A model generated the notes under the pieces. It saw only the letters and a list, made by a program, of their open reading frames with translations. It did no database searches and had not been told where the DNA came from. The position numbers and the translations under genes were made by a program. Below, one piece after another: positions 12,804 through 60,890 of a DNA stretch of 64,000 nucleotides (its first letter is position 1; each line of letters begins with the position of its first letter). The DNA is from Candidatus Methylomirabilota bacterium (GTDB lineage Bacteria > Methylomirabilota > Methylomirabilia > Rokubacteriales > CSP1-6): contig DASTYT010000006.1 of the NCBI GenBank assembly GCA_035764725.1, positions 4,833 through 68,832 of the forward strand, written 5' to 3'.

Positions 12804-13859
12804 ATGAAAAGAACCTGGATGCTGGCGGCGGCGGTCGTGGTGATGGTGGCGGTGGGCGCGGGCGTCCGGCTGGGGCGCGACGAGAAGGAGGCGGCCACGG
12901 CGGCGCCATTTCCCGAGGTGCAGGCGACCCTGGTGTCGCCGCCGCTCGTGCCGCCGCCGATCGACCGCGCCGGCAATGCGCGGGTGATCGTGAGCCTGGA
13001 GACGCGCGAGGTGAAGGGCACGCTCGCGGACGGCGTCGAGTACACGTTCTGGACGTTCGGGGGCACAGTGCCCGGTCCCTTCGTGCGGGTGCGCGTCGGT
13101 GATCTCGTCGAGCTCCGCCTGAGCAATCATCACGGGAGCCGGAACCCGCACTCGATCGACCTCCACGCGGTCACCGGCCCCGGCGGCGGCGCCGCGGTCA
13201 CGCAGCTCGGCCCCGGGCAGGCCGGCGCGTTCGAGTGGAAGGCGATGAACCCCGGGCTCTTCGTGTACCACTGCGCGACGCCCAGCGTGCCCGCGCACAT
13301 CGCCAACGGCATGTACGGGCTGATCCTCGTGGAGCCCGAGAAAGGGCTTCCGCGGGTGGACCGCGAGTACTACGTGATGCAGGGCGAGTTCTACACGAAG
13401 GGCAAGACCCTGGCGCCGGGCCTGCAGGCGCTCGACGCGGCCAAGCTCACGAGCGAGCGGCCGGAGTACGTGGTGTTCAACGGCCGGATGGGGGCGCTCA
13501 TGGACGACGGCGCGCTCAAGGCCAAGGTGGGCGAGACGGTACGGCTCTTCGTGGGCAACGGTGGCCCGAACCTGATCTCGTCCTTCCACGTGATCGGCGA
13601 GATCTTCGACACCGTGTACACGGAGGCGGCGATGGGCGGCACGCCGGCGCGGAACGTGCAGACCACGCTGGTCCCCGCGGGCGGCGCCGCCATCGTGGAG
13701 ATGACGGTGCAGGCGCCCGGCCGGTTCTTGCTGGTGGACCACAGCATCGTCCGCGCGATGGAGAAGGGCGCGCTGGGCGCGCTCGAGGTGGCGGGTGCCG
13801 AGCGGCCCGAGGTGTTCCGGGTGCTCACGCCCGGCACGGGCGGGACGGGCGGTCACTGA
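12804..13859 (+). CDS. nirK: Copper-containing nitrite reductase (NirK), signal peptide present
   Basis: 351 aa with [29 protein letters not shown] type-1/type-2 Cu ligand motifs in a two-cupredoxin-domain layout. GAGGAGG RBS. Confidence 0.85.
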
Positions 13860-14030
13860 TGGGCGCTGCGATGAGCCAAGCGATGCGTGCGCTCGTCGCG
13901 GCCGGGGCGGCCGCCGCCGAAATGGGGCGGCGGCCGCAGCCTCGGCGCGATGCCGCCCTGGCGCCATCTTCCCGAGAGCGAGCGCTGGGCCGTCATCCAC
14001 CACCCCCGCTCGCTGAAGAAGTAGGCGGCG

Positions 14031-27604: not shown

Positions 27605-28444
27605 TTAACGGCCGGTGAAGCGCGGGGCCCGCTTCTCGAGGAAGTGCGCGACCCCTTCCTTGAAGTCCTCGGCGCCGAAGCTCTTCCGCATCTCCTCGTC
27701 GGCCACCGCGGCGGCCTCGGCGAGGCCCTGGAACTGGGCCTGCCACAGCTGGCGCTTGATCACGCCCATCGAGCGAGGCGAGACGAAGTCCGCGAGCTCG
27801 CGCGCGTAGCCCAGCACGCCGGACATGAAGGAGGCGGCGGGCAGCACCTGGGACACCAGGCCCATCCGGAGCGCCTCGTAGGCGTCGATCTTCCGCGCGG
27901 AGAGCAGGAGGTCGAGCGCGTTTTGAAGTCCCACCAGCCGCGGAAGCATCCAGGACACCCCGTGCTCCGCGATGAGCCCGCGGCGCGCGAACGATGTGGT
28001 GAAGACCGCGGTGTCGCTGGCGAAGCGCACGTCGCAGTAGAGGGTGACGACGAGGCCGAGTCCGGCGGTGGCGCCGTTGAGCGCGGCCAGCACCGGCTTG
28101 GCCAGAGTGGGAAAGTAGGCGTAGGGTCCGCCGAACTCGGCGGCCGCGCCGGTCGCGGCATCGCCCGGCGCTCGCTCGCGCCGCAGCACCGCCTCGGCCT
28201 CCTCGCCCCCCGTGGCGTTGCCGGAGAGCCCGGAGAGGAGGCCCATGTCGGCGCCCGCGCAGAACCCGCGGCCGGCGCCGGTGAGCACGATCACGCGCAC
28301 GCCGTCGTCCTCGTTCGCCTCGTGCATCGCGGCCCGGACCTCACGCCCCATCACGGCCGTCCACGCGTTGAGCTTGTCGGGTCGGTTGAGGGTGACGGTG
28401 GCGACCCGGTCCTTCACCTCGTAGAGGACTTCCGCGTAGCCCAT
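27605..28444 (-). CDS. Enoyl-CoA hydratase/isomerase (crotonase) family protein
   Basis: VATVTLNRPDKLNAW...VIVLTGAGRGFCAGADM has the crotonase oxyanion-hole motifs. The ATG at 28444 sits just after GTGC. Confidence 0.8.
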   Translation of the reverse strand: MGYAEVLYEVKDRVATVTLNRPDKLNAWTAVMGREVRAAMHEANEDDGVRVIVLTGAGRGFCAGADMGLLSGLSGNATGGEEAEAVLRRERAPGDAATGAAAEFGGPYAYFPTLAKPVLAALNGATAGLGLVVTLYCDVRFASDTAVFTTSFARRGLIAEHGVSWMLPRLVGLQNALDLLLSARKIDAYEALRMGLVSQVLPAASFMSGVLGYARELADFVSPRSMGVIKRQLWQAQFQGLAEAAAVADEEMRKSFGAEDFKEGVAHFLEKRAPRFTGR

Positions 28445-28532
28445 GCACGGCCTCCCGCGCTCGCGCGCCGATGAAAGGGGGGCGGCGGCCTTGCCTCCCC
28501 CGCAGGGTCCGTATAGTATCGCGGCCATCCCC

Positions 28533-29426
28533 ATGACCGCCATCTCGGTCACCCGTCTCGCGCCCGCCCTCGCCGCCCGTGTCGAGGGTGTGGACATCAC
28601 GCGGCCGGTCGCCGACGCCGTGTTCGCCGAGATCCGCGCGGCATTCGAGGAGCACTCGGTGCTCGTGTTCCACGATCAGCCCTTCGACGACGAGACGCAG
28701 GTCGCGTTCAGCCGCCACTTCGGGCCGCTCGAGGTCACGCTCTCCGTCAACCCCGCTGCGGGGACGCCGTTCGCGCGCCAGTCCAACCTCGACATCAAGA
28801 CCGGGGAGGTGATCCCGCCGGATGATCGGCGGATGCTCTATCAGCGGGCAAATATGCTGTGGCACAGTGACTCGTCCTTCAAGCGCGTGCCCTCCCTCTG
28901 CTCCCTGCTTTCCGGGCGAATAGTCCCGCCGGAAGGCGGCGCCACCGAGTTCGCGAGCACCCGCGGCGGCTACGCCGCGCTGCCCGAGGCGACGCGGCGA
29001 CGCCTCGAGGACCTAGTGGTGGTGCACGACTTCTCGTGGTCGCGCGACCAGATTTCGCCCGGGTTTTTCACCGAAGCGGAGAAGGCGCCGTACCCGCCGG
29101 TGCGTCACCGGCTCGTGCGCACGAACCCCGTCAACGGGCGGCGCGCCCTCCTGATCGGGGCCCATGCCTCGTCCATCGAGGGCATGCCGCTCGCGGAGGG
29201 GCGCGCCCTCCTCCGGGAGCTGCTCGATCACGTCACCCGGCCGGAGCGCTGCTACCGGCACGCGTGGCGCGTGGGCGATCTGGTAATCTGGGACAACCGC
29301 GCGGTGCTCCACCGAGCGACCCCATACGACACCACGCGGTACCGCCGCCTCATGCAGCGCACCACGATCTCCGGCGACCCGCGGGAAGGAGGAACGCTGG
29401 CATGCGACTCGTCGACCTCAGCATGA
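28533..29426 (+). CDS. TauD/TfdA-family Fe(II)/2-oxoglutarate-dependent dioxygenase
   Basis: FHDQPFDDETQVAFSRHFG...WHSD.S...DNRAVLHRA follows the HxD...H facial-triad pattern of TauD. Confidence 0.75.
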   Translation: MTAISVTRLAPALAARVEGVDITRPVADAVFAEIRAAFEEHSVLVFHDQPFDDETQVAFSRHFGPLEVTLSVNPAAGTPFARQSNLDIKTGEVIPPDDRRMLYQRANMLWHSDSSFKRVPSLCSLLSGRIVPPEGGATEFASTRGGYAALPEATRRRLEDLVVVHDFSWSRDQISPGFFTEAEKAPYPPVRHRLVRTNPVNGRRALLIGAHASSIEGMPLAEGRALLRELLDHVTRPERCYRHAWRVGDLVIWDNRAVLHRATPYDTTRYRRLMQRTTISGDPREGGTLACDSSTSA

Positions 29427-33473: not shown

Positions 33474-33685
33474 GCCGCTACGACGTGAACGTGGTGCTGT
33501 ATCGCCTCAAGAAGGATGCGGCGTTCCGCGCGCGCTTCACGCGGGAGCCGGCGGCGGCGCTCGGCCGCGCCGATCTCACCGACGAGGAGCGGGACGCTTT
33601 CGTGCGCTGGGACGTCCGGCGCCTCAACGAGCTGGGCGGGTCACTCCACCTGCTGGTGTCGATCCCGCGCCTGGGCGGGCACTAA
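33470..33685 (+). CDS. LigA-like small subunit (aromatic-ring-opening dioxygenase alpha-subunit domain, 71 aa)
   Basis: VSRYDVNVVLYRLKKDAAFRARFTREPAAALGRADLTDEERDAFVRWDVRRLNELGG resembles the LigA domain. GTG start overlaps the LigB stop. Confidence 0.55.
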   Translation: MSRYDVNVVLYRLKKDAAFRARFTREPAAALGRADLTDEERDAFVRWDVRRLNELGGSLHLLVSIPRLGGH

Positions 33686-35487
33686 ACGGAGTTGCGGTAC
33701 CAGTAGGGGATGCTGGCGAAGATCGAGTCCCACGAGTTGGGCTCGATGCCCATGAGGTTGTTCGCGGCGGCGTGGAGCACGTTGCGCCACGTGATCGGGA
33801 TGATGACGCCGCTCTGGATCACGAGGTCGTTCATTCGGATGAACATCGCCGCGCGCTTCACCGGATCCATCTCGTGCTCGGCCTTCCGCCACAGCGTGTC
33901 GTACTCCGCGTTCCGCCAGCGGCTGACGTTCCGGCCCGTCCACTTGTTCTCCTTGGTGGGGATGAGCCACGAGCAGAACTGCCCCATGAAGCCCTGGGGG
34001 TCGAGGCTCGCGAACGTCGCGTAGGTCTGCATGTCGGCGAGGAAGCGGGTGCGGTTGTCCGGATTCGCCATGTCGCTGGAGAAGAAGATCTGGGACGGGA
34101 TGGCCTTGATCTCGACCTCCACCCCGGCCCGCGCCGCCGCTTGCTTCACCACCGCCTGCACCTTCTGGGTGAGGGCGTGCGCGGTGGCCTGGAACACCAG
34201 GCGCAGCCGCTTGCCGTCCTTCATCCGCACGCCGTCGGCGCCGCGCGCCCAGCCCGCTCGGTCGAGGATCATGTTGGCCTTGTCGACGCTGAACTCCCAC
34301 GTGTTGTTGGAGGATCGGAAGCGGTCGGGGGTGTTCAGGATGTTCACCGCGATCTGGCCGGTGCGCCCGACCAGGTTGTCCTGGATGGCCTGGCGGTCCA
34401 CAAGCAGGCCCACCGCGGTGCGCATCACGGGGTCGCTCAGGAAGGGATGCGGCGCCTTGAGGGCAGAGCGCTCGCCGTCGACCTCGGTCCACGGATCGGT
34501 CTGGTTGAGCTGGATGTGGCTGACCCCGCTCGACGGGATCGTCATCACCCGACCCTTGCCACCCAGCTCGATCCGCTTCAGCACCTCCTCTTCGAGGAGG
34601 ATGTAGTAGGCGAAGTCGTACTCGCCGGTCTGCATCACCGCCCGCGCGGCCCCGGCGGCGTCGCCGCCGCACTTGATCTCGATGCGGTCGAAGAACGGCC
34701 GGTTCGGGACGTAGTAGTTGGGGTTGATCTCCGCGCGGATCACGTCGCCGGGCCGGAACTCGACCAGCTTGTAGGGCCCGGTGCCCACCGGGCGGATCAT
34801 GCCGATGGCCTCCCGCGCGCCCGCGCCCTTGGTGGACTCGAAGACGTGCCGGGGCAGCAGCCCTTCGCCGGTGAAGAAGCCCTGCCAGAAGGGCTGGGGC
34901 TTGCCGAAGTTGACCTTCACCTGGTGCGAGTCGATCTTGTCGATCTTGGAGATCTCCAGATACCCCTCTCGGCTGACCGAGCCGGTCGCGGCGTCGCTGG
35001 CGAACTGCCAGTTGAAGATGACGTCGTCCGCGGTGAACGGGGCGCCGTCGTGCCAGGTCACCCCGCGCTTGAGCTTCCAGATCACCCAGCGGCCGTCCTT
35101 GGCCACCGTGCCCTTCTCGAGCGAGGGCAGCTCGGACGCGAGGACCGGCGTGAACGTCCCGTCCGGCGCCGGGGCGGCCAGCGGCTCGTAGAAGAGCCGG
35201 CTCGCGGTCACGTCGCGGAGCGCGCTGGTGAAGTGGGGGTGGAGCAGGGTCGGCGCGTCCCACATGAGGACGCGGAGCTCCCCCCCGCCGCCGCGCCGGG
35301 TCGGCACGAAGTCCTTGGCCTGGGCGTGGGCGGCTCGCTGCGCCAGTGCCGGGCTCGTGGCGAGCAGCTGAGCCGCCATGGGGGCGGTGAGTCCCATCCC
35401 CACGAGAGTGTGGACGAAAACCCGGCGGGAGAGGCGCCCCCGCTCGACGTCGCGGACCATCCGGCGAAGGCTCTTCTCGATGCTCAT
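33682..35487 (-). CDS. ABC transporter substrate-binding protein, family 5, Tat signal; last gene of the NRPS operon
   Basis: RRVFVHTLVGMGLTAPMAAQLLATSPALA Tat leader followed by a DppA/OppA-like body of 601 aa. Its start overlaps the PPTase stop (ATGA). Confidence 0.8.
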   Translation of the reverse strand: MSIEKSLRRMVRDVERGRLSRRVFVHTLVGMGLTAPMAAQLLATSPALAQRAAHAQAKDFVPTRRGGGGELRVLMWDAPTLLHPHFTSALRDVTASRLFYEPLAAPAPDGTFTPVLASELPSLEKGTVAKDGRWVIWKLKRGVTWHDGAPFTADDVIFNWQFASDAATGSVSREGYLEISKIDKIDSHQVKVNFGKPQPFWQGFFTGEGLLPRHVFESTKGAGAREAIGMIRPVGTGPYKLVEFRPGDVIRAEINPNYYVPNRPFFDRIEIKCGGDAAGAARAVMQTGEYDFAYYILLEEEVLKRIELGGKGRVMTIPSSGVSHIQLNQTDPWTEVDGERSALKAPHPFLSDPVMRTAVGLLVDRQAIQDNLVGRTGQIAVNILNTPDRFRSSNNTWEFSVDKANMILDRAGWARGADGVRMKDGKRLRLVFQATAHALTQKVQAVVKQAAARAGVEVEIKAIPSQIFFSSDMANPDNRTRFLADMQTYATFASLDPQGFMGQFCSWLIPTKENKWTGRNVSRWRNAEYDTLWRKAEHEMDPVKRAAMFIRMNDLVIQSGVIIPITWRNVLHAAANNLMGIEPNSWDSIFASIPYWYRNSV

Positions 35488-36311
35488 TCCCGAGGGCTCC
35501 TCATGAGGGTGGTCCGATCTGGATAGCGTGGCTGCGGGCCGGAGTCAAGAGGCGCCGAAATGTCCCGCTCCGCGGGCGTCCACTCCCAGGCGCGCAGATC
35601 GAAGCGCTCGCCCTCGACCACAAGCGCGCCCAGATGACAGGGAGCCGGGACCAGCTCGCAGAGGCTCCAGCGCTCCACCTCCGCGGGATCTTCCAGCGAG
35701 GAGACCAGCGCGCGCGTCGCCCCGGTGGCGAGCGGGACCTCGAAGTGCTGGAGCGAGAGCGACAGCCCGTCGCCGCGCGCCTTCACGTACGCTTCCTTCC
35801 GCGTCCAGCAGCGCACGAAGGTCGCGGCCCGCTCCTCGGGCGGCGCGGCGAGGAGCGTGTCCACCTCGGCGTGGGCGAAGAAGCGCCGCGCCACGTCCAT
35901 GCCGCTGTGGCCGAGACGAATGCCCTCGACGTCCACGCCCACGCGTCGGCCCTGCGCCACCGCCACCACCGCGCACCAGTCGGCGTGGGTGAGGTTGAAC
36001 TCGAGGCCCTCGGGCGCGGCGAGCAGCGCGGGCTTGCCGTGGGGCGCGCGCACGAAGCGCAGCGTCTCGGGCCGGGCGCCGGCATAGCCGGCGAGGATGC
36101 CGCGCAGCCCGGCCCGGCCCGCCAGGTAGCGCTCGCGGTCGCGCGTGAAGCGGAACCGGCCCGCCCGCTCGCGCTCCTCGGCGGACAGCCGCCGCTCCAG
36201 CGCCAGCCCGTCGGGGATCATCTCGTCGAGGTCGAAGCGCCACACGTGCACCTCGTCGAGCGCGAGAACCGGCGGCGCGTCGGGCCGTACCCAGTGGAGC
36301 GGCACGCTCAT
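35484..36311 (-). CDS. Sfp-type 4'-phosphopantetheinyl transferase
   Basis: GKPALLAAPEGLEFNLTHADWCAVVAV and WTRKEAYVKARG (W/KEA motif). It is coupled by ATGA to NRPS-3 upstream and the SBP downstream. Confidence 0.8.
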   Translation of the reverse strand: MSVPLHWVRPDAPPVLALDEVHVWRFDLDEMIPDGLALERRLSAEERERAGRFRFTRDRERYLAGRAGLRGILAGYAGARPETLRFVRAPHGKPALLAAPEGLEFNLTHADWCAVVAVAQGRRVGVDVEGIRLGHSGMDVARRFFAHAEVDTLLAAPPEERAATFVRCWTRKEAYVKARGDGLSLSLQHFEVPLATGATRALVSSLEDPAEVERWSLCELVPAPCHLGALVVEGERFDLRAWEWTPAERDISAPLDSGPQPRYPDRTTLMRSPRE

Positions 36312-37150
36312 GTGCGCGACGCCTGCTCGAGGCAGGCGCGGAGTCGCTCCGCCGTCGCGCGCACGTGGTGGGTGATCGCGCTGAGATGACCCCCGGGCAC
36401 GGTGTAGGTCGTCACCCGCGAGCAGATGGACGACCAGCCGAAATCAGGGCGTGGATCCTCCGCGTCCGCGGAGCGGAGGACGACGATGCGGCCGCGGTAG
36501 GGCCCGGGGATGTGACGGAGGACGGCGCGCTTGTAGTGCGCGGCGAGGGGGCTGGGCGTCCGCGGCGGCGGGTCGGGCGCGCCATCGAGGGACGCGGCGA
36601 CGTCCGAGCGTCGGCCCCTGGTAACGATTTTCTTCCGCACGATCACGGCCAGGCCACGCAACCACCCGACCGGCCCGCGCCCACCGGCGGTATCCAGCCG
36701 CCCGCGATAGTAGCGGAGCCAGACCGCGACGTCTTGCGCTCGTATGCGCCAGCGGATCAGCCGGTCGTCGCGATTCGCTGCTGGCACACGCAGCACGGCA
36801 TCGACGGCCCGCGCGAGCGCACCCAGCACACGCACGACCCGGGTGGGAGCGACGGCATCGAGCATGACGACGAGCGGCACTTCCGCGCCGCGCCCGCGCA
36901 GGAGGCGGGCGATCTCGAGCGCTACCAGCGCGCCGTTGCAGTGCCCGCCGAGCAGGTACGGCCCCCTCGGCCGAACCGCCAGGATGTCGGAGAGATGAGT
37001 TGCCGCCATCGCTTCGATGGTGTCGGGTATCGCCTTTCCCTGGAGGCTGTGGGGGTGCACCGCGTAGAACGGCTGCTCCAAGCCCGCCGCTTCCGCGAGC
37101 GCGCGAGTGAAGAATCCGCCTCCGTTGAAGACTCCGTGGCAGAAAAAGAG
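36308..37150 (-). other. Thioesterase domain of NRPS-3 with a GxCxG (Cys) nucleophile motif (Cys codon near 36938-36940); boundaries approximate
   Basis: LFFCHGVFNGGG...GPYLLGGHCNGALVALEIARLL aligns with canonical GPYHLGGWSFGG, with C replacing S. Confidence 0.6.
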
Positions 37151-40100
37151 AGGAGGGTGCGCGCCGGCGGGATTCAGAGCGACCACCGGAGGCTCCGACG
37201 TCGCGACCTCGTCGTCGAGGGCCCGGGCAAGATGCTCGATGGTGGGGCCGGTGAAGAGCGTGGTGAGCGGCACCCGACGGCCCCACTCGCGCTCGACGGC
37301 CGCCATCATCCGCGCGGCGAGGAGGGAGTGGCCTCCGAGATCGAAGAAGCTGTCGCGCACCCCGATCCCGGTGACGCCCAGCAGCTCCTCCCAGAGGTCG
37401 ACGAGCGTCCGCTCCGTGGCGTTGCTGGGCTTCACCCGATGCGCCGGCTCACGCGCTCCTTCCGGATCCGGGGCGGGGAGCGCGGCGCGATCCAGCTTGC
37501 CGTTCGGTGTCAGCGGGAGCGCGGGCAGCACGACGACGGCGCCGGGCACCATGAACGCGGGCAAGGTGAGGCGCAGCGCGCTACGGATCTCGGTCGGCCG
37601 CGGGCTCGCGCCGGGCGCGGGCGCGACGTAGGCGACCAGGCGGTGCGCGTCGGAGTCCTCGCCCTCCATCACCACGACGGCGTCGCCCACCTCGGGGAGT
37701 CGGAGGAGCGCTGCCTCGATCTCGTCCGGCTCGATACGATGGCCGCGCAGCTTGACCTGACGGTCGAGGCGACCCAAAAACTCGACCACGCCGTCGGCCC
37801 GGAATCGCGCCCGATCACCGGTACGATAGAGCCGCGCGCCCGGCGTGGCGTCGAACGGATGCGGCACGAAGCGCTCGGCGGTGAGCTCGGGTCGACCCAG
37901 ATAGCCGTCGGCGAGCCCGGGGCCGCCGATGTAGATCTCTCCGACCACCCCCACCGGCACAGGCTCGCGCCGGTCGTCGAGGATGTAGAGCTCGGTATTC
38001 GCGATGGGCCGGCCGATCGGCACTGTCGAGGCGCCCTCGGCCACCTCGCGCACCTCGTGCCACGTGGCGAAGGTGGTGGTCTCGGTGGGCCCGTAGGCAT
38101 TGATCAGCCGCGCGGGCGGCGCGGCCTGCAGCACCGCGCGCACCCACCGGGGCTCAGCTATCTCCCCGCCGAAAAGGACCTGCCGCAGCGGCCGGAAGGC
38201 ATCTGGCGCTTCCCGCGCCACCTGGTTGAAGAGCGATGTGGTGAGGAAGAGCGTGGTCACGCCCTCGCGCGCGAGCGCGCCGGCGAGGGCCCGCGGGGCC
38301 AGCGCGGTGTCGGGCGGGATCAGGACGAGCCGGGCCCCGTTCAGCAGCGCGCCCCAGATCTCGAAGGTGGCGGCGTCGAACGCGGGGTTGGAGACGTGCG
38401 CCACCACGTCGTCGGGGCCGAGCCGGACGTAGTCGGTGTCGCGCACCAGGCGCGCGATCGCGCGATGCGGCACCGCCACGCCCTTGGGGGCGCCCGTGGA
38501 GCCCGAGGTGTACATCACGTAGGCGAGGTCCGCCCCTCCGAGCGGTAGCCCCTCCGCGGTCGGCGCCTCGAGCCCCTCGCCATCGGACGATTCCAGCCGC
38601 ACCTCGGGGCGGGCGTCGCCGCGTCCCGCTCCCGCGGTCACCACGGCGACCGCGCCCGCGTCGTCGAGCAGCGCGGTGCGGCGCTCCGCGGGGTGGGAGG
38701 GATCGAGGGGCACATAGACGCCGCCCGCGGTCAGCACGCCGAGCAGCGCGACCGCCAGCTCGATGGAGCGGTCGCAGCACACGCCGACGCGCGCGCCGCG
38801 GCCCATCCCGAGGTCTCGCAGCCGGCGCGCCAGGCGGCGGGCGCGTCGTTCCAGCTCCACGTACGTGATTGTCCGCGCGCCATCCGTGACCGCCACCGCG
38901 TCGGGCGTCCGGGCGACGTGCTCGGCGAAGAGCGCCGGGAGCGACCGGTCGGCCGGGTACGGTGAGCGCGTGGCGTTCCACTCCACCAGGACACGGTGAC
39001 GCTCGGCTTCACCGAGGAGCGGCAGCTGCGAGAGGGGGCGATCGGCGTCGCGGGCGATCTCCTGGAGCAGCCGCCCGAATTGGGCGACCAGGTCCTCCGC
39101 AGTGGCGCGGTCGAAGAGCGCGGAGCAGTACTCGAGGGTGCCCCGAAGCCCCTCGGGCGCCTCGACGAGGATCAGCGAGTAGTCGACCTTGGCCGTGCCC
39201 TGGTCGAGGTGGAACGGCGTGATCTCGAGGCCGGCGAGGGCGAGAGGAGTACGGGGCGCGTTCTGCAGCGCCAGGATGGCCTGGAAGACGGGATTGCGGC
39301 TCGCATCGCGCGCTGGGCGGAGCGTCTCCACCAGCCGCTCGAAGGGAACCTCGGCGTTGGCGAAGGCGCCCAGCGCGGTGTCTCGGGTGCGCCGGAGCAG
39401 CTCGCAGAAGGTCGGATCCCCCGCGAGCTCGCCGCGCAGCACCACGGTGTTGGCGAAGAAGCCGATCAGCCCCTCGAGCTCGGTGCGGGGGCGGCCGGCG
39501 ATCGGCGACCCGATCAGGACCTCGTCCTGCCCGGCGTGACGCGCCAGGAGCACCTGGAAAGCCGCGAGGAGCGTCATGTAGAGGGTGGCGCCTTGCCGCC
39601 GCGCGAGCGCGCGGAGCCCCTCGGTGACGTCACGGCTCACCGTGATCGCGACGACGCCTCCCACGAAGCTCTGGACCGCCGGCCGCGGCCGGTCCATGGG
39701 CATCGTGAGCGCCGCCGGCGCGCCGGCGAGCCGCTCCGTCCAGTACGCGAGCTGCGCCTGGAGTTCCGCGCCGCCGAGGCGGTCGCGCTGCCACACCGCG
39801 TAGTCACCGTACTGCAGGGGAAGGGGCGGCAGCGTGGGCGCCCGGCCCGCGCGGAGCGCGGCATAGGCGGTCTCGAGCTCGCGGGCCAGCACGCCCATCG
39901 ACCATCCGTCGGAGATCAGGTGGTGAAGCGTGACGACGAGGAGGTGCTCGTCGTCGCTCCGGCGGAAGAGCCGCGAGCGGATCAGCGGCCCGCGCGCGAG
40001 GTCGAAGACCTGGCTCCCCTCGCGGACGGCCGCGCGCTCGAGCGCCGCGTCGTCGCCGTCGGGCCACGGGTCCACGGGCAGCGCGAACGCCCCGACGGAG

Positions 40101-40438
40101 GTGATGCGCTGACGCGGCTCCCCGTCCTCGACGACGATGCCGGTGCGGAGCGCCTCGTGGCGATGGACGACCACCTCGAAGCTCCGGCGCAGCGCCTCCA
40201 CGTCGAGGCGGCCGCGGAGCCGCGCCGCCAGCGGGATGTGGTACACCGCGCTGTCCGGCACGAGCTGGTGCAGGAACCACAGGCGCTGCTGGGGTGCGGA
40301 GAGCGGCACCGGCGCCGCGGGATCCCGGCGCGGCAGCGCGCTCCGCGTGCCCGGCGCGCCCGCGAGCAGCTTGGCCTCGAGACGCTGGCGCTCCTCGGGT
40401 GTCAGCGTCGACGCCCGGCGTGGCGCCCGCTCGGCCAT
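36308..40438 (-). CDS. NRPS-3: termination module C-A-T-TE
   Basis: C-domain HHxxxDG motif (LHHLISDGWSMGV). A-domain motifs (YTSGSTGAPKGV, GRLDRQVKLRGHRIE). T-domain FFDLGGHSLLA. TE domain with GPYLLGGHCNGALVALE. 1376 aa. Confidence 0.9.
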   Translation of the reverse strand: MAERAPRRASTLTPEERQRLEAKLLAGAPGTRSALPRRDPAAPVPLSAPQQRLWFLHQLVPDSAVYHIPLAARLRGRLDVEALRRSFEVVVHRHEALRTGIVVEDGEPRQRITSVGAFALPVDPWPDGDDAALERAAVREGSQVFDLARGPLIRSRLFRRSDDEHLLVVTLHHLISDGWSMGVLARELETAYAALRAGRAPTLPPLPLQYGDYAVWQRDRLGGAELQAQLAYWTERLAGAPAALTMPMDRPRPAVQSFVGGVVAITVSRDVTEGLRALARRQGATLYMTLLAAFQVLLARHAGQDEVLIGSPIAGRPRTELEGLIGFFANTVVLRGELAGDPTFCELLRRTRDTALGAFANAEVPFERLVETLRPARDASRNPVFQAILALQNAPRTPLALAGLEITPFHLDQGTAKVDYSLILVEAPEGLRGTLEYCSALFDRATAEDLVAQFGRLLQEIARDADRPLSQLPLLGEAERHRVLVEWNATRSPYPADRSLPALFAEHVARTPDAVAVTDGARTITYVELERRARRLARRLRDLGMGRGARVGVCCDRSIELAVALLGVLTAGGVYVPLDPSHPAERRTALLDDAGAVAVVTAGAGRGDARPEVRLESSDGEGLEAPTAEGLPLGGADLAYVMYTSGSTGAPKGVAVPHRAIARLVRDTDYVRLGPDDVVAHVSNPAFDAATFEIWGALLNGARLVLIPPDTALAPRALAGALAREGVTTLFLTTSLFNQVAREAPDAFRPLRQVLFGGEIAEPRWVRAVLQAAPPARLINAYGPTETTTFATWHEVREVAEGASTVPIGRPIANTELYILDDRREPVPVGVVGEIYIGGPGLADGYLGRPELTAERFVPHPFDATPGARLYRTGDRARFRADGVVEFLGRLDRQVKLRGHRIEPDEIEAALLRLPEVGDAVVVMEGEDSDAHRLVAYVAPAPGASPRPTEIRSALRLTLPAFMVPGAVVVLPALPLTPNGKLDRAALPAPDPEGAREPAHRVKPSNATERTLVDLWEELLGVTGIGVRDSFFDLGGHSLLAARMMAAVEREWGRRVPLTTLFTGPTIEHLARALDDEVATSEPPVVALNPAGAHPPLFFCHGVFNGGGFFTRALAEAAGLEQPFYAVHPHSLQGKAIPDTIEAMAATHLSDILAVRPRGPYLLGGHCNGALVALEIARLLRGRGAEVPLVVMLDAVAPTRVVRVLGALARAVDAVLRVPAANRDDRLIRWRIRAQDVAVWLRYYRGRLDTAGGRGPVGWLRGLAVIVRKKIVTRGRRSDVAASLDGAPDPPPRTPSPLAAHYKRAVLRHIPGPYRGRIVVLRSADAEDPRPDFGWSSICSRVTTYTVPGGHLSAITHHVRATAERLRACLEQASRT

Positions 40439-43400
40439 CAGCCCGAAGCCCCGGCGGAGGGCCCCAGCCGCGCTGCGATGTGGGCCGCCACCGCGGCGAC
40501 GGTAGGTGCCTCGAGGAACTGGTTCAGCGGCACGGTGACGCCCAGCGCATCGGCCATGTGCGCCGCCGCGACCGCCGCCTGCAACGAGTCGCCGCCCAGC
40601 GCCACGAAATCGTCGGCCACGCCGACCGGGCGACCGAGCACGCCGCTCCAGACCTTGGCCACCTGGGCTTCGATGGCGGTGAGCGCGGGTGCGGCGGACC
40701 CGGACCCCGTCGGCGTCTCCGGGCGGCTGAGGGCGGCGGCCAGCTCCCGGCGCTCGGGCTTGCCGGTGGCGCCGAGGGGAATCGAATCCACGAAGGCGAG
40801 CTGACGGGGCACCTTGAACGCCGCAAGGCGATCACTCACGAAGCGCCGGATGTCCGCCTCGGTCGCGCACGAGCCCGGTCGCAAGACGAGCGCAGCGGCC
40901 ACGTCCTCGCCGAGGGTCGGGTGCGGGACGGAGAAGGTGACGGCGCGCGCCACCGCGGGGTGCGCGACGAGCACGTCGTCCACCTCGCGCGGCGAGATCT
41001 TCTCGCCGCCGCGGTTGATCATCTCCTTGATGCGGCCGGTCACGTAGAGATAGCCGTCGGCATCGAAGCGGCCGAGATCGCCGGTCCGATACCAGCCGTC
41101 CCGGAAGGCGGCCGCATTGGCGGCGGAATCGTTCTCGTATCCCGTCATCACCGTCTTGCCGCGCACCTGGATCTCGCCGACCTCGCCCGTTCGCGTCGCG
41201 CCGCCGTCCTCGTCGACGATGGCGACCTCCCCGGTGACGGGGCGCCCCACCGAGCCGGCCCGCCGCTCGCCCGGCGGGAGGGGATTCGAGGTGACGAGCA
41301 TGCAGGACTCGGACTGCCCGTAGCCCTCGATCACGGGCACGCCGAGCCGACGCTCGAGCTCGGCCATGAGGGCCGGAGGGAGCGGCGCCGCCGAGGAGCG
41401 GATGAAGCGCAGCGCGTGCCCCGCCACCACGTGCGGGTGCTGCGGGGCTTCGGCCACGATGGCCTGATGAATCGTCGGCACCGCCGAGTACCAGGTGGGC
41501 CGCGTCGCCTCCATCCAGTCGAAGACGGCGGTGGGATCGAACGCGGGGGTGCAGATCACGCTCGCGCCGGCGGCCAGCGAGGTCAGCACGACCATCAGGC
41601 CCTGGACATGGAACAGTGGCATCACGCCGAGGGCGCGATCGTTCGGGCGCAGCGCATAGGTCTGCACGAAGCCCTGGATCGCGGCGGCCATGTTGGCGTG
41701 AGTGAGCGGGACCACCTTGGGCCGCGCGGTGGTGCCCGACGTGTGGATGGCGAGCGCGACGTCGTCCGGGCGCGGACTGTTGACGGGACTTGGCGTCGCG
41801 GGGAGGTGAGGTCCCAGCGCGAAGCGACCGGCCCCCCCGGGTCGCGGCTCGACCTCCAGCAGCGGCAGGCCGAGGCGCGCGGCCACGACACGGGCGGCGG
41901 GGGCGGCCCCGGCGGGCACCATGACCGCGCCCACCCGGGCCGTGGTGAGATACCGCTCGAGCTCCGGCTCGCGATACGCGGGATTCAGCGGTACCGCGGT
42001 GGCTCCGAGCGCCACCGCGACGAAGGCGACGGCCAGCTGCGGGCCCTGCGGCATGATCAGGGCGATCCGGTCGCCTCGTCCGAGCCCCCACGTCGCGAGC
42101 ACCGCGAGGACCTCGTCCACCTGGGTGAGGAGATCGCGGTAGCAGAGCGGCGCCGCGCCGGGCGCGGTGATGGCCGGCGCATCGGGCGCGCGAAGCGCCT
42201 GCGCCTCGATCAGGGTGCGCAGAGTCGGCGCGGCCACGGGCATCGCATCCGCGGTGGGTGTGCCCTCGGCGGCCGGATCGTCCTTCAGCTGTCCCTCGAG
42301 GATCGCCTCGGCCAGATTGGACAGGATCGGGGCCTCGAAGATCCGGCGCAGCGGGACGTCGACGCCGAGCCGCTCGCGCAGCCGCGAGGCGAGGCGGGCG
42401 GCGAGCAGTGAATGGCCGCCGATCGCGAAGAAGTCGTCGTGGCGTCCGATCTCGGTCACGCCCAGCAGCTCGGTCCACATCTGCGCCAGCGCCTGCTCGA
42501 GCGGCGTGGCGGGCGCCTCGCGCATCGCCGTCCGCAGGAGATCGTGCTCGCCCGGGTCGGGCAGGGCCCCGCGGTCGACCTTACCGTGAGGGGTGAGCGG
42601 CAGCGCGTCCAGCGTGACGACAGCTCGGGGAATCATCGGCACCGGCAGCTGCTCGGCGAGGAAGTGGCGCAGGGTCTCGCGATCGAGCCGGGCCTCGGGC
42701 CGGAGCACGACCCAGGCGGCGAGATAGCCGTCGCCGGCGTCCTCGCGGACGGTGACGACGGCCTCGCGCACCGCGGGATGCCCCGCGAGCACCGCCTCCA
42801 CTTCGCCGAGCTCAACCCGCATGCCACGGAGCTTGACCTGATGATCGAGACGGCCGAGGTACTCGAGGACGCCGTCGGCGCGCCACCGGGCGCGATCGCC
42901 CGTCCGGTAGAGCCGCGCCCCCGACTCGGGGCTGCGGGGGTCCGGCACGAAGCGCTCCGCCGTCAGCTCCGGGCGGTTGAGATAGCCGCGCGCGAGCCCC
43001 ACGCCGCCGAGATGAAGCTCGCCGGCCACGCCCGGAGGCACCGGCTGTCCCGACGCGTCGAGCACCCACGCGCGCATGCCCGCGATGGGCCGGCCGATGG
43101 GAACGCTGGTCTCGCCGCCCCCGCAGCGCCACCACGTTGCGTCGATCGTCGCCTCGGTCGGGCCGTAGAGATTGATCAGCTCCACCGGCAGGCGCGCGAG
43201 ACACCGCTCGGCCAGCTCGCCGGTCAGGGCCTCGCCGCCGCAGCACACCCGGCGCAGCACGCGCGCCCCATCGAGCCCGGGCTCGTCCAAGAGCGCGCGC
43301 AGCAGCGACGGTACGAGCTGCAGCACGGTGATCTCCTGCTCGGCGAGGACGCGTGCGAGCTCGCCGGGGTCGCGATGAGCTCCCGCGGGGCCGATGACCA

Positions 43401-45447
43401 GGCGCGCGCCCGCCAGCAGCGGCGCCCAGAACTCCCAGACCGATGCGTCGAAGCCGATCGGGGTGCGCTGGAGGACGGCATCGGCCTCGGTGAGGGGGAG
43501 CGTGTCTGCCATCCAGCGCATGTGGTTCACGATGGCGCGATGGGGGATCATCACGCCCTTGGGACGGCCGGTGGAGCCGGACGTATAGAGGATGTAGGCG
43601 AGCGCCTCGGGCTCGGCGTCGGGCTCGAGCGCCTCGGCCGCTGTCCGCGCAATCTCCTCGGCATCGGTGGAGGGGCAGACCACGCGGACGCCGGACTCGG
43701 CGAGCCGCGGGCCCAGCGCGGCGTCGGTGATCACCACCGGCGCGGTCGCGTCCGCGAGCATGAAGCGCAGGCGCTCCGTGGGGAGAGCCGGATCGAGGGG
43801 CAGGTATGCCCCGCCGGCCTTGAGCACGGCATAGAGCGCGACGGGGAGATCGAGCGACGGGCCCATGCAGACGCCCACGGGCACGTCGGGCCCCACGCCG
43901 AGCACGCGGAGATAGCGCCCGAGCGCGCCCGCCCGAGCCTCGAGCTGCCCGTAGGTGAGGGTGTCGCGCCCCGCGACCACCGCCACCGCGTCAGGGGAGG
44001 TCGCCGCGCGCGCTGCGACGAGGCGGTGCAAGCACGCCTTCGGGGCCTCCGCCGGCGCGGTCTCCGCGGAGGCGCCGCTCCAGGACTCGAGGCGCGCCGT
44101 CTCCTCGGCGGTCAGCAAGGGGAGCTCCGAGAGGCGCCGGTCGGGATCGGTCACCGCGCCCTCGAGGAGCCGCGTGAAGTGGGCGAGCAGCCGCTCGATG
44201 GTCGCGCCGTCGAAGAGGTCGGTGCTGTAGTCCGCAATGAGCTGGAGCCCCGTCGCGCTTTCCACCGCCGTCAGGGAGAGGTCGAACTTCGCCGTCCCGT
44301 TTCGCGCCCGCAGCGGCGTGGCGGTGAGCCCGGAGAGGCGAGGCATTCCGGAGAGTGCGGCCTCCTGCAGCACCAGCATGACCTGCACGATGGGCGAGCG
44401 GTCGCGGCGGCGCTCGGGCGCCAGCGCAGCGACCAGGCGCTCGAAGGGCAGCTCCTGATGCCCCAGGGCCTCGCGGGACACGCGCGACGCTTGACGCAAG
44501 AGCTCCCGGAATGTCGGATCGCCGTCGAGCGCCATCCGTAGGGGCAGCGTGTTGACGAAGTAGCCGATCAGCGGCTCGACTTCGCGCAGGATCCGGCAGG
44601 CGCTGGCCGTTCCCACGACGAGATCGGTCTCGCCGGTGTAGCGGTGCAGGAGCGCCTGGAAGGCGGCGAGCAGCACCGCGAAGGGGGTCACGCGCTCGGC
44701 CCGTGCGAGCGCCCTCACCACGCTCACGTGCTCGGACGGCAGGAGTCGCGTGCACTGATTTCCGCCGTCGCCCAGCTCGGCGGGGCGCGGGTGGTCGGTG
44801 GGCAGCGCGAGGGCAGGCGGCGCTCCCGCCAGCTGTTGGCGCCAGTAGCTGATCTCGTCGGCGAGCCGTTGCCCGGCCAGCCGGGCGCGCTGCCACGCGG
44901 CGTGATCCGCGTACTGCACGGGCAGCGGCGGCAGCGTGGCGATGTCGCCCGTGACCGCCGCCGAGTAGTGCGCCTCGAGCTCACGCATGAGCACGCCCAC
45001 GGACCAACCGTCAGAGGCGATGTGGTGGAGGACGAGGAGCAAGGCGTGCTCGCGTTCACCCAGCCGCGCGACGAGGGCCCGCAGCATGAGGTCGCACGTG
45101 AGGTCGAACGAACGGCGGGCCTCCGCGGTGAGCTGGGCTTCGAGAGCCGCCTCGCGGGCGTCTTCGGGCAGGCCCGTGAGATCCACGTACGTCACCTCGA
45201 CGGGTCTGGGTGGCCCGACCATCTGCACGGGCTCTCCGTCGGTCTCGTGGAAGGTCGTGCGCAGAGCCTCGTGGCGCGCCACGATCGCGGTGAGCGCGCT
45301 CTCGAGCGCGGTGAGGTCGAAGTCGCCGGCGAGGCGGAACGCCTTGCCCATGTTGTAAGCGGGCGAGCCGGGGCGCAGGCGGTCCACGAGCCAGAGCTGC
45401 TGCTGCGCGAAGGAGAGCGGGGAGGGCGGGCGACTGGCGAGACTCAT
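40438..45447 (-). CDS. NRPS-2: C-A-T followed by an in-line AMP-binding (AAE3/MatB-like acyl-CoA-ligase-type) domain and a second carrier domain (C-A-T-AL-T)
   Basis: The real start MSLASRPPSPLSFAQQQLW overlaps the NRPS-1 stop (ATGA at 45444-45447). The 432 upstream codons of the track ORF are out-of-frame readthrough of NRPS-1. Motifs: LHHIASDGWS, YTSGSTGRPKGV, FFAIGGHSLLA, then HTSGTTARPKVV...MPLFHVQGL...MINRGGEKISPREVDD, then FVALGGDSLQA. Confidence 0.85.
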   Translation of the reverse strand: MSLASRPPSPLSFAQQQLWLVDRLRPGSPAYNMGKAFRLAGDFDLTALESALTAIVARHEALRTTFHETDGEPVQMVGPPRPVEVTYVDLTGLPEDAREAALEAQLTAEARRSFDLTCDLMLRALVARLGEREHALLLVLHHIASDGWSVGVLMRELEAHYSAAVTGDIATLPPLPVQYADHAAWQRARLAGQRLADEISYWRQQLAGAPPALALPTDHPRPAELGDGGNQCTRLLPSEHVSVVRALARAERVTPFAVLLAAFQALLHRYTGETDLVVGTASACRILREVEPLIGYFVNTLPLRMALDGDPTFRELLRQASRVSREALGHQELPFERLVAALAPERRRDRSPIVQVMLVLQEAALSGMPRLSGLTATPLRARNGTAKFDLSLTAVESATGLQLIADYSTDLFDGATIERLLAHFTRLLEGAVTDPDRRLSELPLLTAEETARLESWSGASAETAPAEAPKACLHRLVAARAATSPDAVAVVAGRDTLTYGQLEARAGALGRYLRVLGVGPDVPVGVCMGPSLDLPVALYAVLKAGGAYLPLDPALPTERLRFMLADATAPVVITDAALGPRLAESGVRVVCPSTDAEEIARTAAEALEPDAEPEALAYILYTSGSTGRPKGVMIPHRAIVNHMRWMADTLPLTEADAVLQRTPIGFDASVWEFWAPLLAGARLVIGPAGAHRDPGELARVLAEQEITVLQLVPSLLRALLDEPGLDGARVLRRVCCGGEALTGELAERCLARLPVELINLYGPTEATIDATWWRCGGGETSVPIGRPIAGMRAWVLDASGQPVPPGVAGELHLGGVGLARGYLNRPELTAERFVPDPRSPESGARLYRTGDRARWRADGVLEYLGRLDHQVKLRGMRVELGEVEAVLAGHPAVREAVVTVREDAGDGYLAAWVVLRPEARLDRETLRHFLAEQLPVPMIPRAVVTLDALPLTPHGKVDRGALPDPGEHDLLRTAMREAPATPLEQALAQMWTELLGVTEIGRHDDFFAIGGHSLLAARLASRLRERLGVDVPLRRIFEAPILSNLAEAILEGQLKDDPAAEGTPTADAMPVAAPTLRTLIEAQALRAPDAPAITAPGAAPLCYRDLLTQVDEVLAVLATWGLGRGDRIALIMPQGPQLAVAFVAVALGATAVPLNPAYREPELERYLTTARVGAVMVPAGAAPAARVVAARLGLPLLEVEPRPGGAGRFALGPHLPATPSPVNSPRPDDVALAIHTSGTTARPKVVPLTHANMAAAIQGFVQTYALRPNDRALGVMPLFHVQGLMVVLTSLAAGASVICTPAFDPTAVFDWMEATRPTWYSAVPTIHQAIVAEAPQHPHVVAGHALRFIRSSAAPLPPALMAELERRLGVPVIEGYGQSESCMLVTSNPLPPGERRAGSVGRPVTGEVAIVDEDGGATRTGEVGEIQVRGKTVMTGYENDSAANAAAFRDGWYRTGDLGRFDADGYLYVTGRIKEMINRGGEKISPREVDDVLVAHPAVARAVTFSVPHPTLGEDVAAALVLRPGSCATEADIRRFVSDRLAAFKVPRQLAFVDSIPLGATGKPERRELAAALSRPETPTGSGSAAPALTAIEAQVAKVWSGVLGRPVGVADDFVALGGDSLQAAVAAAHMADALGVTVPLNQFLEAPTVAAVAAHIAARLGPSAGASG
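40680..42300 (-). other. In-line ANL-superfamily domain of NRPS-2 (oxalate/malonate-CoA-ligase-like); boundaries approximate
   Basis: TSGTTARPK, PLFHVQGL and INRGGEKISPREV motifs resemble the AAE3/MatB clade rather than NRPS A-domains (compare YTSGSTGRPKG in the same proteins). Confidence 0.55.
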
Positions 45448-48400
45448 GCCGTCACCTCCGCCGCGACGGCGTGGGCGAGCGCGGCTCGATCCGGCTTGCC
45501 GGCGGGCCCGCGGGGGATCTCGCTCACGAGCAGGATGTGCCGCGGCACCTTGAACGCCGACACGCGCTCGGCGGCGAACCGGCGCAGGTCGGTGGGCATC
45601 AGCGCGGCGCCGTCCACCAGCACCACCGCGGCCGCGACGTCCTCGCCGAGCGTGCGGTGCGGGACGCCGAAGGTCACCGCTTCGCGCACTGCCGGATGGG
45701 CAAGCAGGATCTCCTCGACCTCGCGCGGCGCGACCTTCTCGCCGCCGCGGTTGATGATCTCCTTGAGCCGGCCCGTGATGAAGAGAAAGCCGTCCGCGTC
45801 GAGGTGGCCGAGGTCGCCGGTGCGATACCAGCCGTCGTGAAAGCTCGCCGTGGTGGTCCCGGGATCGTCCTCGTAGCCAGCCATGACGTTGACCCCACGC
45901 ACGAGGATCTCGCCGCGGCTCCCCGGGGCAAGCGGGCGGCCGTCGGGATCGATGATCGCGATCTCGGGGCCCGCGCTCACCCCCGCGGATCCCGTCTTGC
46001 CGGCGCCCCGTGCCAGCGGCGTCACCGCCACGAGGGTGGCCGTCTCGGTCTGGCCGTAGCTCTCGATGACGGGCGCGGCGAAGAGCCGCTCCATCTCCTC
46101 GCGCAGCCGCGGAGGCAGCGCGGACGAGGCGGAGCGGACGAAGCGGAGGCCGACGCGCGCGGCAATCGGGGCGGCGCTCCCCCGCTCCAGGGCGGCCTGG
46201 CCGAGTATGCCTTGATGGACGGTCGGCGTGCCATTCACCCAGGTCGGGCGGGTCTCGTCGAGCCATGCGAAGACGTGGGCTGCCTCGAAGCGCGGCGGGC
46301 ACACCACGGCGGATCCGGCCCCGAGTGAGGCGATGAGCATCATGAGGCCGTTGACGTGGAAGAGTGGCATGAGGTCGAGGCAGCGGTCGCCGGGCCGAAG
46401 CGCCAGCGCCTGCCGGTGCCCCCGTGCGGAGGCGAGGATCTGGCGGTGGCTCAAGGGCACCCGCTTCGGCCGCGCGGTGGTGCCGGACGTCAGGAGCACC
46501 AGGGCGATGTCGTCGTGGCCCCGTGCGGCCGGAGCGGCCCCCGTGGCGGGCAGGGGCAGGTCCAGCGCGATGGCGCCCGCAGGCCCCGCCGACGCGCTCT
46601 GGATCGCGATCGCGGGCAGCCCTCGCCGGCGCGCCACCCCGAGGGCGGGAGCACCGGCGGGGGCGAGGAGGGCGTCGAGCGGCGTGGTCGCGAGGATCGC
46701 CTCGATTTCGGGCGGGGGCGCCGCGGGATTCAACGGCACGCACACCGCCGCCGCTGCCACCGCGAGGATCGCGACCGCCGCCTCCGGTCCCTGCGGCGCC
46801 ACGATCGCGATGCGCGCGCGGCCACCCAGCCCCGCTCCAGCGAGTCGCTGCGCCGTATCGTCGACGTGGGCCAGCAGGTCCCGATACGAGAGAGGCGTCC
46901 GCCCCGGCGCGACGATCGCCGCCGCGGTCGGCGCGTGGCGCGCGTGTGCCTCGAGGAGGTCGCGGAGCGTCGAGGCCTCGTCCGCGGATGGTGCGTCCGC
47001 CTCGTCGTCGCGGTCCCCGCGCTCGCCTGCCCCGCCGAGCCCCTCGGGGCTGGCCTCGATCTCGAGCAGGGCGAGGGCCAGGTCGGCGATGGTCGAGTTG
47101 TCGAAGATCTGGCGGAGCGGGATCTCGACACCGAGACGGTCGCGCAGGCGCGCCACCAGCCGGGCGGCGAGGAGCGAATGGCCGCCGAGATCGAAGAAGT
47201 CGTCGAGGATGCCGATCCGGGCGGCTCCCAGCACGTCCGACCAGATCTCGACCAGCATGGCCTCGAGGGGCGTGCGGGCCGCCACATGGGCGGGTGCGCC
47301 GACGGCATCATCGGGCCCCGGCGCGGGAAGCGCGTCGCGGTCCAGCTTGCGATTGGCGGTGAGGGGCAGCGCGGACATGGGCACGAACGCCGCGGGCACC
47401 AGATGAGCGGGGAGGAGCTGACGCGCGAATTGCCGGAGGGCCGCGCGGTCGACCGCCGCGGCGCCGTGCGCCACCACGTAGGCGGCGAGGCGCTGATCGC
47501 CGGGGTGGGGCTCCCACGGCAACACCGCGACCTCGCGGACGGCGGGGTGCTGACGCAGCACGCTTTCCGCCTCGCCGGGCTCGGTGCGGATGCCGCGGAT
47601 CTTGATCTGTCGATCGATGCGCCCCAGGAAGTCGAGCGTGCCGTCGGCACGGGCCCGCGCGAGGTCGCCGGTCTTGTAGAGCCGGCCGCCGGCCGCGTGA
47701 GGATCGGCCACGAAGCGCGCCGCGCTGAGGGCGGGATCGCCCATGTAGCCCGATGCCACGCCGACGCCGCCGATGTAGAGCTCGCCGGGCACGCCGGCCG
47801 GCACGGGGCCGAGCGCCGCATCGAGGATGAGCGCCGACACGCCGGCGATGGGCCGTCCGATCGGCACCGCGCCCTCGGCCTCGGGGGCCGTGTCGACACG
47901 ATGGAACGTGCAGGTCATCGTACACTCGGTAGGCCCGTACTGGTTGACGAAGGCCGCATGCGGGCAGAGATGCCGTATCGCGCGGCGCACGTCGTCGTAC
48001 AGGAGCGGCTCGCCCGTGGTCAGCACGAGCCGCAAGGTGGACGCGGCGAGCCCGCGATCCTCGGCGGCGCCGGTGAGGGGCCGCAGCACCGACGGGACAA
48101 GCGCGAGCAGCGCGGTCGCCTCGTGGGCTCGCAGCCGCTCGAGGATGGCCTCCGGGTCCGCGGCCTCGCCGTCCCGCAATAGCACGACGCGCGCGCCCAC
48201 GGCGAGGGGGGCGAAGAACTCGCGCACCGAGGCGTCGAAGGACGCGCGCGCGAGCTGGAGGACCACGTCGGTGGATCGCAGCCCGAACGTCTCCGTGAGG
48301 AACTCGAGATAGCTCAGCACGGCCCGGTGGACGATCGGTACGCCCTTCGGGACGCCGCTCGAGCCCGACGTGAACGCGACATAGGCCAGGTCATCGAGCC

Positions 48401-60814: not shown

Positions 60815-60890
60815 TGGTGGGCCCACTTGGACTCGAACCAAGACCTGACCGGTTATGAGCCGGGAGCTCTGCCAATTGAGCTATGGGCCC
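60815..60890 (-). tRNA. tRNA-Met (anticodon CAU), elongator type (G1-C72 paired); could alternatively be a lysidine-modified tRNA-Ile2. The CCA end is genomically encoded
   Basis: GGGCCCATAGCTCAATTGGCAGAGCTCCCGGCTCATAACCGGTCAGGTCTTGGTTCGAGTCCAAGTGGGCCCACCA. Cloverleaf with a 7-bp acceptor stem, T-loop TTCGAGT and anticodon loop CTCATAA. Confidence 0.85.

Follow-up and report, generated by a model that had tools for sequence, protein, structure and literature searches.

The question raised by this locus is how a nonribosomal peptide is released when the terminal thioesterase (TE) carries cysteine in place of the usual catalytic serine. The window, a 64,000-nucleotide stretch of contig DASTYT010000006.1 from a Candidatus Methylomirabilota bacterium, encodes three nonribosomal peptide synthetases (NRPS-1, NRPS-2, and NRPS-3), of which NRPS-3 (36308..40438, minus strand; 1376 aa by translation) ends in a TE with such a cysteine, Cys1167. 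A sequence-only reading of the window had described Cys-type TEs as rare and had taken the cysteine as a hint of strained-ring offloading, as in ObiF and SulM. We conclude with a probability of roughly 0.6 that the NRPS-3 TE is a functional type I Cys-TE that ends the NRPS-1/-2/-3 line, where it would take over the chain on Cys1167 by transthioesterification and then release it to a nucleophile other than water, a second step that we infer by analogy with characterized Cys-TEs.

Nucleophile and catalytic triad of the NRPS-3 thioesterase

The TE of NRPS-3 (36311..37210, minus strand; aa 1077-1376) adopts the alpha/beta-hydrolase fold and matched the Pfam family Thioesterase (PF00975) at 63.7 bits (cut-off 26.4) over residues 1096-1202. 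It is C-terminal, directly follows the last carrier domain and runs to the stop codon. The order of Pfam domains in NRPS-3, condensation (C), adenylation (A), carrier (T), and then TE, agrees with the terminal position given earlier, and a TE does lie in the previously assigned span of 36308-37150, but that span is slightly short as the domain reaches about 37210. The three domains ahead of the TE, all on the minus strand, are a C domain (38996..40309, aa 44-481; PF00668) with the motif HHLISDG, the terminal A domain (37496..38929; AMP-binding at aa 504-847 and AMP-binding_C at aa 906-981) and the T domain that feeds the TE (37217..37408, aa 1011-1074; PF00550) with the phosphopantetheine site GGHS.

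The translation of NRPS-3 contains RPRGPYLLGGHCNGALVALEIARLL, and the nucleophile-elbow stretch GPYLLGGHCNGALVALE is present in it, with an elbow that reads GPYLLGGHCNG. The replacement of GxSxG by GHCNG was confirmed: the codon at 36938..36940 (minus strand) is TGC, seen as 'gca' on the plus strand, and encodes residue 1167 within GGHCNG. A sequence search of the PDB aligned Cys1167 with the nucleophiles of solved TEs, namely Cys in AB3403 (GGWCFGG) and Ser in SkyXY (LLGWSLGS). The Asp/His partners that had been put forward for checking were found as well. Asp1194 (codon GAT, 36857..36859, minus strand), directly after beta6 (VVMLD) at the site called position I, aligned through VVMLDAVAP with VMIDTRAP of AB3403, and His1351 (codon CAT, 36386..36388, minus strand), after beta8 in VPGGHLS, aligned with LPGDHSS of the same protein. 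The alignments and the predicted secondary structure point to a Cys1167/His1351/Asp1194 triad in which Asp1194 would contact His1351.

An AlphaFold2 model of the TE built with 60 homologues was confident (mean pLDDT, the predicted local distance difference test, 89.5; predicted template modeling score, pTM, 0.86). In the model, Cys1167 lies between a strand (86-90) and a helix (92-106), which is the classic nucleophile elbow, Asp1194 directly follows the strand 113-117 (beta6) and His1351 follows the strand 265-271 (beta8). The lid between beta6 and beta7 (36491..36856, minus strand) has about 121 residues and four predicted helices (H124-140, H144-174, H180-198, and H221-232); the family median is 113 residues, and the same span has 54-101 residues in solved NRPS TEs (PMC11298585). 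Model confidence dropped to a pLDDT of 56-80 over residues 170-220, within the lid. The top structural neighbors of the model in Foldseek were the Pks13 TE and the NocB TE.

Conservation of the cysteine among relatives

When 1.84 billion cluster representatives were searched exhaustively with HMMER, 26,437 were hit, and for 289 of these the E value was below 1e-30. The frequency of Cys was taken from this search, counted on 145 new best hits among the 26,437, and not from a word-index homologue search, which is skewed to shared words such as GGHCNG. Cys occupied the aligned nucleophile position in 137 of the 145 nearest representatives, and Cys in this TE is therefore not the isolated rarity it had been taken for. 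In a MAFFT alignment of 127 full-length TE domains from these relatives, the nucleophile column was Cys in 121 (95%) and the triad histidine column was His in 124 (98%). Asn directly followed the Cys in 65% of the aligned domains, and the consensus elbow was G[H/Y/F]-C-N-G.

The codon for the cysteine was TGC or TGT in 11 independent loci. Among these are L001 and L011, two metagenome loci that are syntenic and orthologous to the entire cluster, each with an identical GPYLLGGHCNG and the codon TGC; eight further loci also have TGC or TGT. The chance that TGC is a sequencing or assembly error for TCC or AGC, or that the true nucleophile lies elsewhere, is negligible. The exact NRPS-3 protein is absent from the public collection, so there is no second copy for comparison, but the codons of the 11 loci, with the two orthologues among them, exclude a base error or chance, and neither the prevalence of Cys among the nearest representatives nor the placement of Cys1167 in the elbow by both alignment and model leaves room for a nucleophile at a different, serine-containing position. 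Judged from these alignments, Cys1167 is no one-off: it is inherited, and shared with a large clade that is widespread in the environment.

Relatives found by a scan of genome contigs were distant (best-segment identity of 57% or less) and came from metagenome-assembled genomes (MAGs) of uncultured beta- and deltaproteobacteria and Solirubrobacterales. When L001 was compared with the window over 33682-42228, the TE had the lowest identity, 53%, against 65% for C, 72-75% for A, 77% for T, 75% for the adenylate-forming domain A' described below, 70% for the phosphopantetheinyl transferase, and 79% for the binding protein. When the literature was searched in full text for GHCNG, GYCNG, and GFCNG, only papers on defensins and on cotton CNGC came up.

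The aligned relatives fall into two groups by the position of the triad acid. Position I (TE column 118) was Asp or Glu in 74 of the 127, including all of those nearest to the NRPS-3 TE, and Ala, Gly, Asn, His, or Cys in the other 53. Thirty-four of these 53 had Trp at the end of beta7 and Asp or Glu two residues later (TE columns 246-249), a pattern that looks like the position-II triad of RifR, ObiF, and SulM within the same Cys clade. The NRPS-3 TE falls in the position-I group, as do its nearest relatives without exception.

The 145 nearest representatives had mostly short architectures: A-T-TE (43), C-A-T-TE (30), TE only (21), T-TE (20), and A'-T-TE (9), with few longer lines. Many A-T-TE relatives are about 900 aa long with a Met start, and their A-domain codes were diverse (Ser-, Thr-, Gly-, or Ile-like, and some that fit no amino acid). 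Nothing relevant on Cys-TEs in bacterial A-T-TE enzymes came up in a literature search. The closest representative (P0087, at 679-3384 of L012, from another metagenome) is a stand-alone A-T-TE protein of 901 aa whose A-T part, including the N-terminus, shares 66% identity with the NRPS-1 loading module and whose Cys-TE is 51% identical to the NRPS-3 TE. It is encoded on a 6-kb contig among non-NRPS genes (bPH_5, DUF1634, and TauE) and resembles the assembly line in a collapsed or ancestral form.

Two observations on other loci concern the same family. A stand-alone T-TE protein of 370 aa with a GHCNG elbow (P0034, at 10001-11113 of L010) is encoded with no NRPS genes nearby, its neighbors being genes for an outer-membrane protein, peptidase M28, GNAT, and GH94. 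Three loci from beta-proteobacterial MAGs (L004 at ~13693-14022, L006 at ~9555-9884, and L008 at ~13690-14019, minus strand) have a single C-A-T-TE gene with a Cys-TE and, on the opposite strand, a further TE of the Ser type (GWSMG) accompanied by a carrier domain; another acyl-CoA-ligase-like gene is also present in them.

Comparison with characterized Cys-type thioesterases

To our knowledge, only a handful of Cys-TEs have been characterized, namely those of ObiF, SulM, the polymyxin and macolacin synthetases, and BulbE. The closest solved structure to the NRPS-3 TE is that of AB3403 from Acinetobacter baumannii (ABBFA_003403, also A1S_0115; PDB 4ZXH and 4ZXI), the only other solved Cys-TE besides those of ObiF and SulM, and one that keeps Asp at position I (PMC11298585). 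The NRPS-3 TE has the Cys nucleophile and the position-I Asp in common with it, and on this likeness in sequence it is probably a functional, AB3403-like type I Cys-TE. The two are only about 25% identical, however, their elbows differ (W-C-F in AB3403, H-C-N in the NRPS-3 TE), and AB3403 is a single-module enzyme whereas the NRPS-3 TE ends a three-protein line. The product of AB3403 has been linked in the literature to acinetin 505, with neither product nor release chemistry established, and we transfer no function from it.

In ObiF and SulM, the triad Asp lies in the loop after beta7 (position II) and position I is Gly; both group with type II TEs, have a constrained pocket, and act on a terminal residue with a beta-nucleophile (PMC6668435; PMC11298585). 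SulM has in addition a Gln-Cys-Asn motif whose Asn is proposed to position the peptide, and the Cys-Asn pair was called unique to SulM among the TEs compared (PMC11298585). The NRPS-3 TE resembles the obafluorin beta-lactone synthetase ObiF1 (PDB 6N8E) in the Cys of its GxCxG elbow and its C-A-T-TE core and resembles the monobactam-forming SulM of sulfazecin biosynthesis (PDB 8W2C and 8W2D) in the Asn after the Cys. By alignment and model, however, its triad Asp is at position I, its motif is His-Cys-Asn, and it was not nearer to ObiF, SulM, and the type II TEs RifR and RedJ than to canonical type I TEs. Neither ObiF nor SulM was among its PDB sequence matches even at E<=10, and BLASTP against the SulM TE sequence (from the supplement of PMC11298585) gave 22% identity with an E value of 0.006. 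Because the Asn that follows the Cys is a feature of the clade as a whole, it is not evidence for SulM-like chemistry.

The residue that the last module would present was predicted from its A-domain code. Codes were read off alignments to GrsA; GrsA itself, run as a control, gave the expected DAWTIAAICK. The terminal A domain of NRPS-3 has the code DAFFLGATFK, which we take, from published codes, to be Ile/Val-like. A terminal residue of this kind would have no beta-hydroxyl or beta-amine for the closure of a four-membered ring.

The macrolactam-forming TEs of polymyxin (PmxE) and macolacin (MacB) synthesis, compared here by description, also have a Cys-His-Asp triad whose Asp lies some 27 residues beyond the Cys (Cys89 and Asp116 in MacB; Cys1167 and Asp1194 in the NRPS-3 TE). 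Ring closure by these TEs depends on the Cys, and a variant with Ser in its place hydrolyses (PMC13288461). They differ from the NRPS-3 TE in that a diaminobutyrate (Dab) side-chain amine of a lipodecapeptide is the nucleophile, and no Dab-like module is evident in NRPS-1/-2/-3; MacB is furthermore reported to cluster with Ser-type cyclases. The TE of BulbE, which closes the bulbiferamide macrocycle by indole N-acylation, is likewise Cys-type and shares its structural neighbors with the NRPS-3 TE, as the AlphaFold model of BulbE is reported to be closest to the Pks13 and NocB TEs (PMC11792885). By description it is set apart by a Cys-Glu instead of a Cys-Asn elbow, by a 'second lid' insertion and by its Trp indole nucleophile, no Trp module being predicted in NRPS-1/-2/-3. 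Replacement of Cys by Ser makes hydrolases of ObiF, MacB, and BulbE and slowed the polymyxin TE 60-fold (PMC6668435; PMC13288461; PMC11792885).

Chain release by the NRPS-3 thioesterase

In the release that we propose, a chain ending in an Ile/Val-like residue would be handed over to Cys1167, by transthioesterification, from the phosphopantetheine thiol on the last T domain. The acyl-enzyme would be a thioester rather than an oxoester and would be the more reactive for it. A nucleophile other than water would then resolve it, either by ordinary ring closure or by transfer to an external amine or alcohol; closure of a four-membered beta-lactone or beta-lactam would not be the resolving step. 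Many relatives of the NRPS-3 TE end A-T-TE or A'-T-TE lines that have no C domain, where simple hydrolysis would waste ATP, which suggests that the TEs of this clade release their chains by bond formation. Release of this kind fits the biochemistry of the characterized Cys-TEs, whose Ser variants hydrolyse.

An ObiF/SulM-like TE that closes a beta-lactone or beta-lactam on the C-terminal residue was the earlier interpretation; its catalytic Cys nucleophile stands, but its link to strained-ring chemistry is not supported, and we consider such a product very unlikely. Besides the Cys and the SulM-like Asn that follows it, acidic residues are present after beta7 (Asp1325, Glu1327, and Asp1328, in ADAEDP), and a TauD-family oxygenase gene 7 kb away on the opposite strand (28443..29426) could in principle provide a beta-hydroxylated residue. 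The position-I Asp, the Ile/Val-like terminal code, which offers no beta-nucleophile, and the low identity to SulM all argue in the other direction. The TauD-family protein scored below the taurine dioxygenase cut-off and matched no specific tailoring family, and given this, its distance and its strand, we did not count it as part of the cluster, to which it may nonetheless belong.

Plain hydrolysis is a serious competitor, although in our judgment less likely than not: the Cys-TE would free a linear carboxylic acid and the Cys would have no special consequence. The canonical triad with Asp at position I would serve such a reaction, the readable A-domain codes reveal no internal nucleophile, the loading A domain has no Asp235, so that the N-terminus is probably capped, and the NikA/CntA-like binding protein that is co-transcribed with the NRPS genes would suit a small, linear, acidic ligand. 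Yet about 95% of the clade retains the Cys, when Ser would be enough for hydrolysis, and in the characterized Cys-TEs it is the Ser variant that hydrolyses (PMC6668435; PMC13288461; PMC11792885); the ATP that so many of the minimal relatives would waste is a further argument for bond-forming release.

Several points weigh against release to a nucleophile other than water. No member of the clade has a known release reaction, AB3403 being described as uncharacterized, and the release step is argued from analogy and from the futile cycle of the minimal lines, some of whose A-T-TE members may owe their shortness to truncated gene calls. The readable residues (Gln-like and Ile/Val-like) are not predicted to offer a side-chain amine or hydroxyl as nucleophile, and the code of the terminal A domain is itself predictive only. 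The loading unit is apparently not an amino acid, which speaks against head-to-tail cyclization and keeps hydrolysis plausible. The acidic residues after beta7 could in principle supply the triad acid, and the TauD-family gene lies 7 kb from the operon.

A Cys elbow should not by itself be taken to flag beta-lactones or beta-lactams; where the triad acid lies and what the last module loads have to be checked too. The pair Cys-Asn, which PMC11298585 describes as unique to SulM among the TEs that it compares, is common in the G[H/Y/F]-C-N-G clade. The clade's only solved member, AB3403, has no assigned reaction, and the NRPS-3 TE is a genome-mining lead more than a surprise; the demand for Cys-type TEs as biocatalysts comes from the ability of the thioester acyl-enzyme to react with weak nucleophiles. 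It is conceivable, and in our view rather doubtful, that TEs with the G[H/Y/F]-C-N-G elbow are a functional class of their own, catalysts of bond-forming release, and that the one described here offloads a peptide that bears oxalyl units from in-line A' domains. If so, the members of the clade, which mostly end minimal A-T-TE, A'-T-TE, or C-A-T-TE lines, would act by acyl transfer to an outside alcohol or amine, or by cyclization, instead of hydrolysis, and the product of this operon might be a small metal-binding ligand that the NikA/CntA-like protein recaptures.

Organization of the operon and predicted building blocks

The three NRPS genes belong to a minus-strand operon whose genes are tightly coupled, with start/stop overlaps of 1-4 nt, in the order NRPS-1, NRPS-2, NRPS-3, a phosphopantetheinyl transferase (PPTase) gene and an SBP_bac_5 gene. 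NRPS-1 (45444..52100) has the Pfam architecture A-T-C-A-T-A', its first A being the loading domain, and NRPS-2 (40438..45447) has C-A-T-A'-T. The NRPS-2 start is the ATG at 45447, which adjoins the NRPS-1 stop at 45444-45446. An upstream extension of NRPS-2 in the list of open reading frames (ORFs; 45447-46743, minus strand), which overlaps NRPS-1 by 1.3 kb, was rejected as an ORF-extension artefact that reads Arg/Pro-rich nonsense in the other frame. The PPTase (35484..36311, minus strand) is of the Sfp/HetI type according to Pfam (ACPS), NCBIfam (HetI-like), and its sequence, and the start of its gene overlaps the NRPS-3 stop (ATGA).

Since the loading A domain of NRPS-1 lacks Asp235, its substrate is probably not an amino acid. 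In NRPS-2, the code of the A domain, DAWQCGLIDK, is Gln-like. The A domain in the second module of NRPS-1 (49370-50192, minus strand) has the code DARARVQMCK, with Arg at pocket positions 239 and 299; we know of no published code that it matches, and the domain may select an acidic or otherwise unusual substrate.

More unusual than the Cys-TE itself are the two in-line A' domains, which are oxalate-CoA-ligase-like. One is the last domain of NRPS-1 (45459..46982, minus strand), with no carrier domain after it; the other is the adenylate-forming A' of NRPS-2 (40726..42228, minus strand), which was the one compared with the PDB and whose best matches there were the oxalate-CoA ligases 5ie0 (AAE3; 6e-110) and 6qjz (2e-109), followed at a wide distance by FadD13 (1e-66). 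Both directly follow carrier domains with no C domain in front, a layout that is kept in L001 and is therefore not an assembly artefact. A literature search found nothing relevant on oxalyl units in NRPS lines and no precedent for such domains, and we could derive no colinear product from the architecture of NRPS-1/-2/-3.

The last gene of the operon (33682..35487, minus strand), which overlaps the PPTase gene by 4 nt, encodes a solute-binding protein of the Pfam family SBP_bac_5 that is 79% identical in L001, as given above. Its best NCBIfam matches, all weak and below cut-off, were NikA, Opp4A, and the staphylopine-binding CntA, and no permease or ATPase genes lie beside it. The protein may serve in recapture of the product. 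A scan of all six frames found no MbtH-like motif in the window.

The genes around the operon are housekeeping and catabolic ones: on one flank are those for a sensor kinase, GroEL, RpoD, and DnaG, and on the other are those for LigB, a thiamine pyrophosphate (TPP) enzyme, and transporters. A single tRNA-Met (CAT) gene is present at 60815-60890 (minus strand), between a CT398-like coiled-coil/zinc-ribbon gene and rpoD. The GC content is 0.66-0.68 in the 54-62 kb region and 0.73-0.75 in the NRPS genes.
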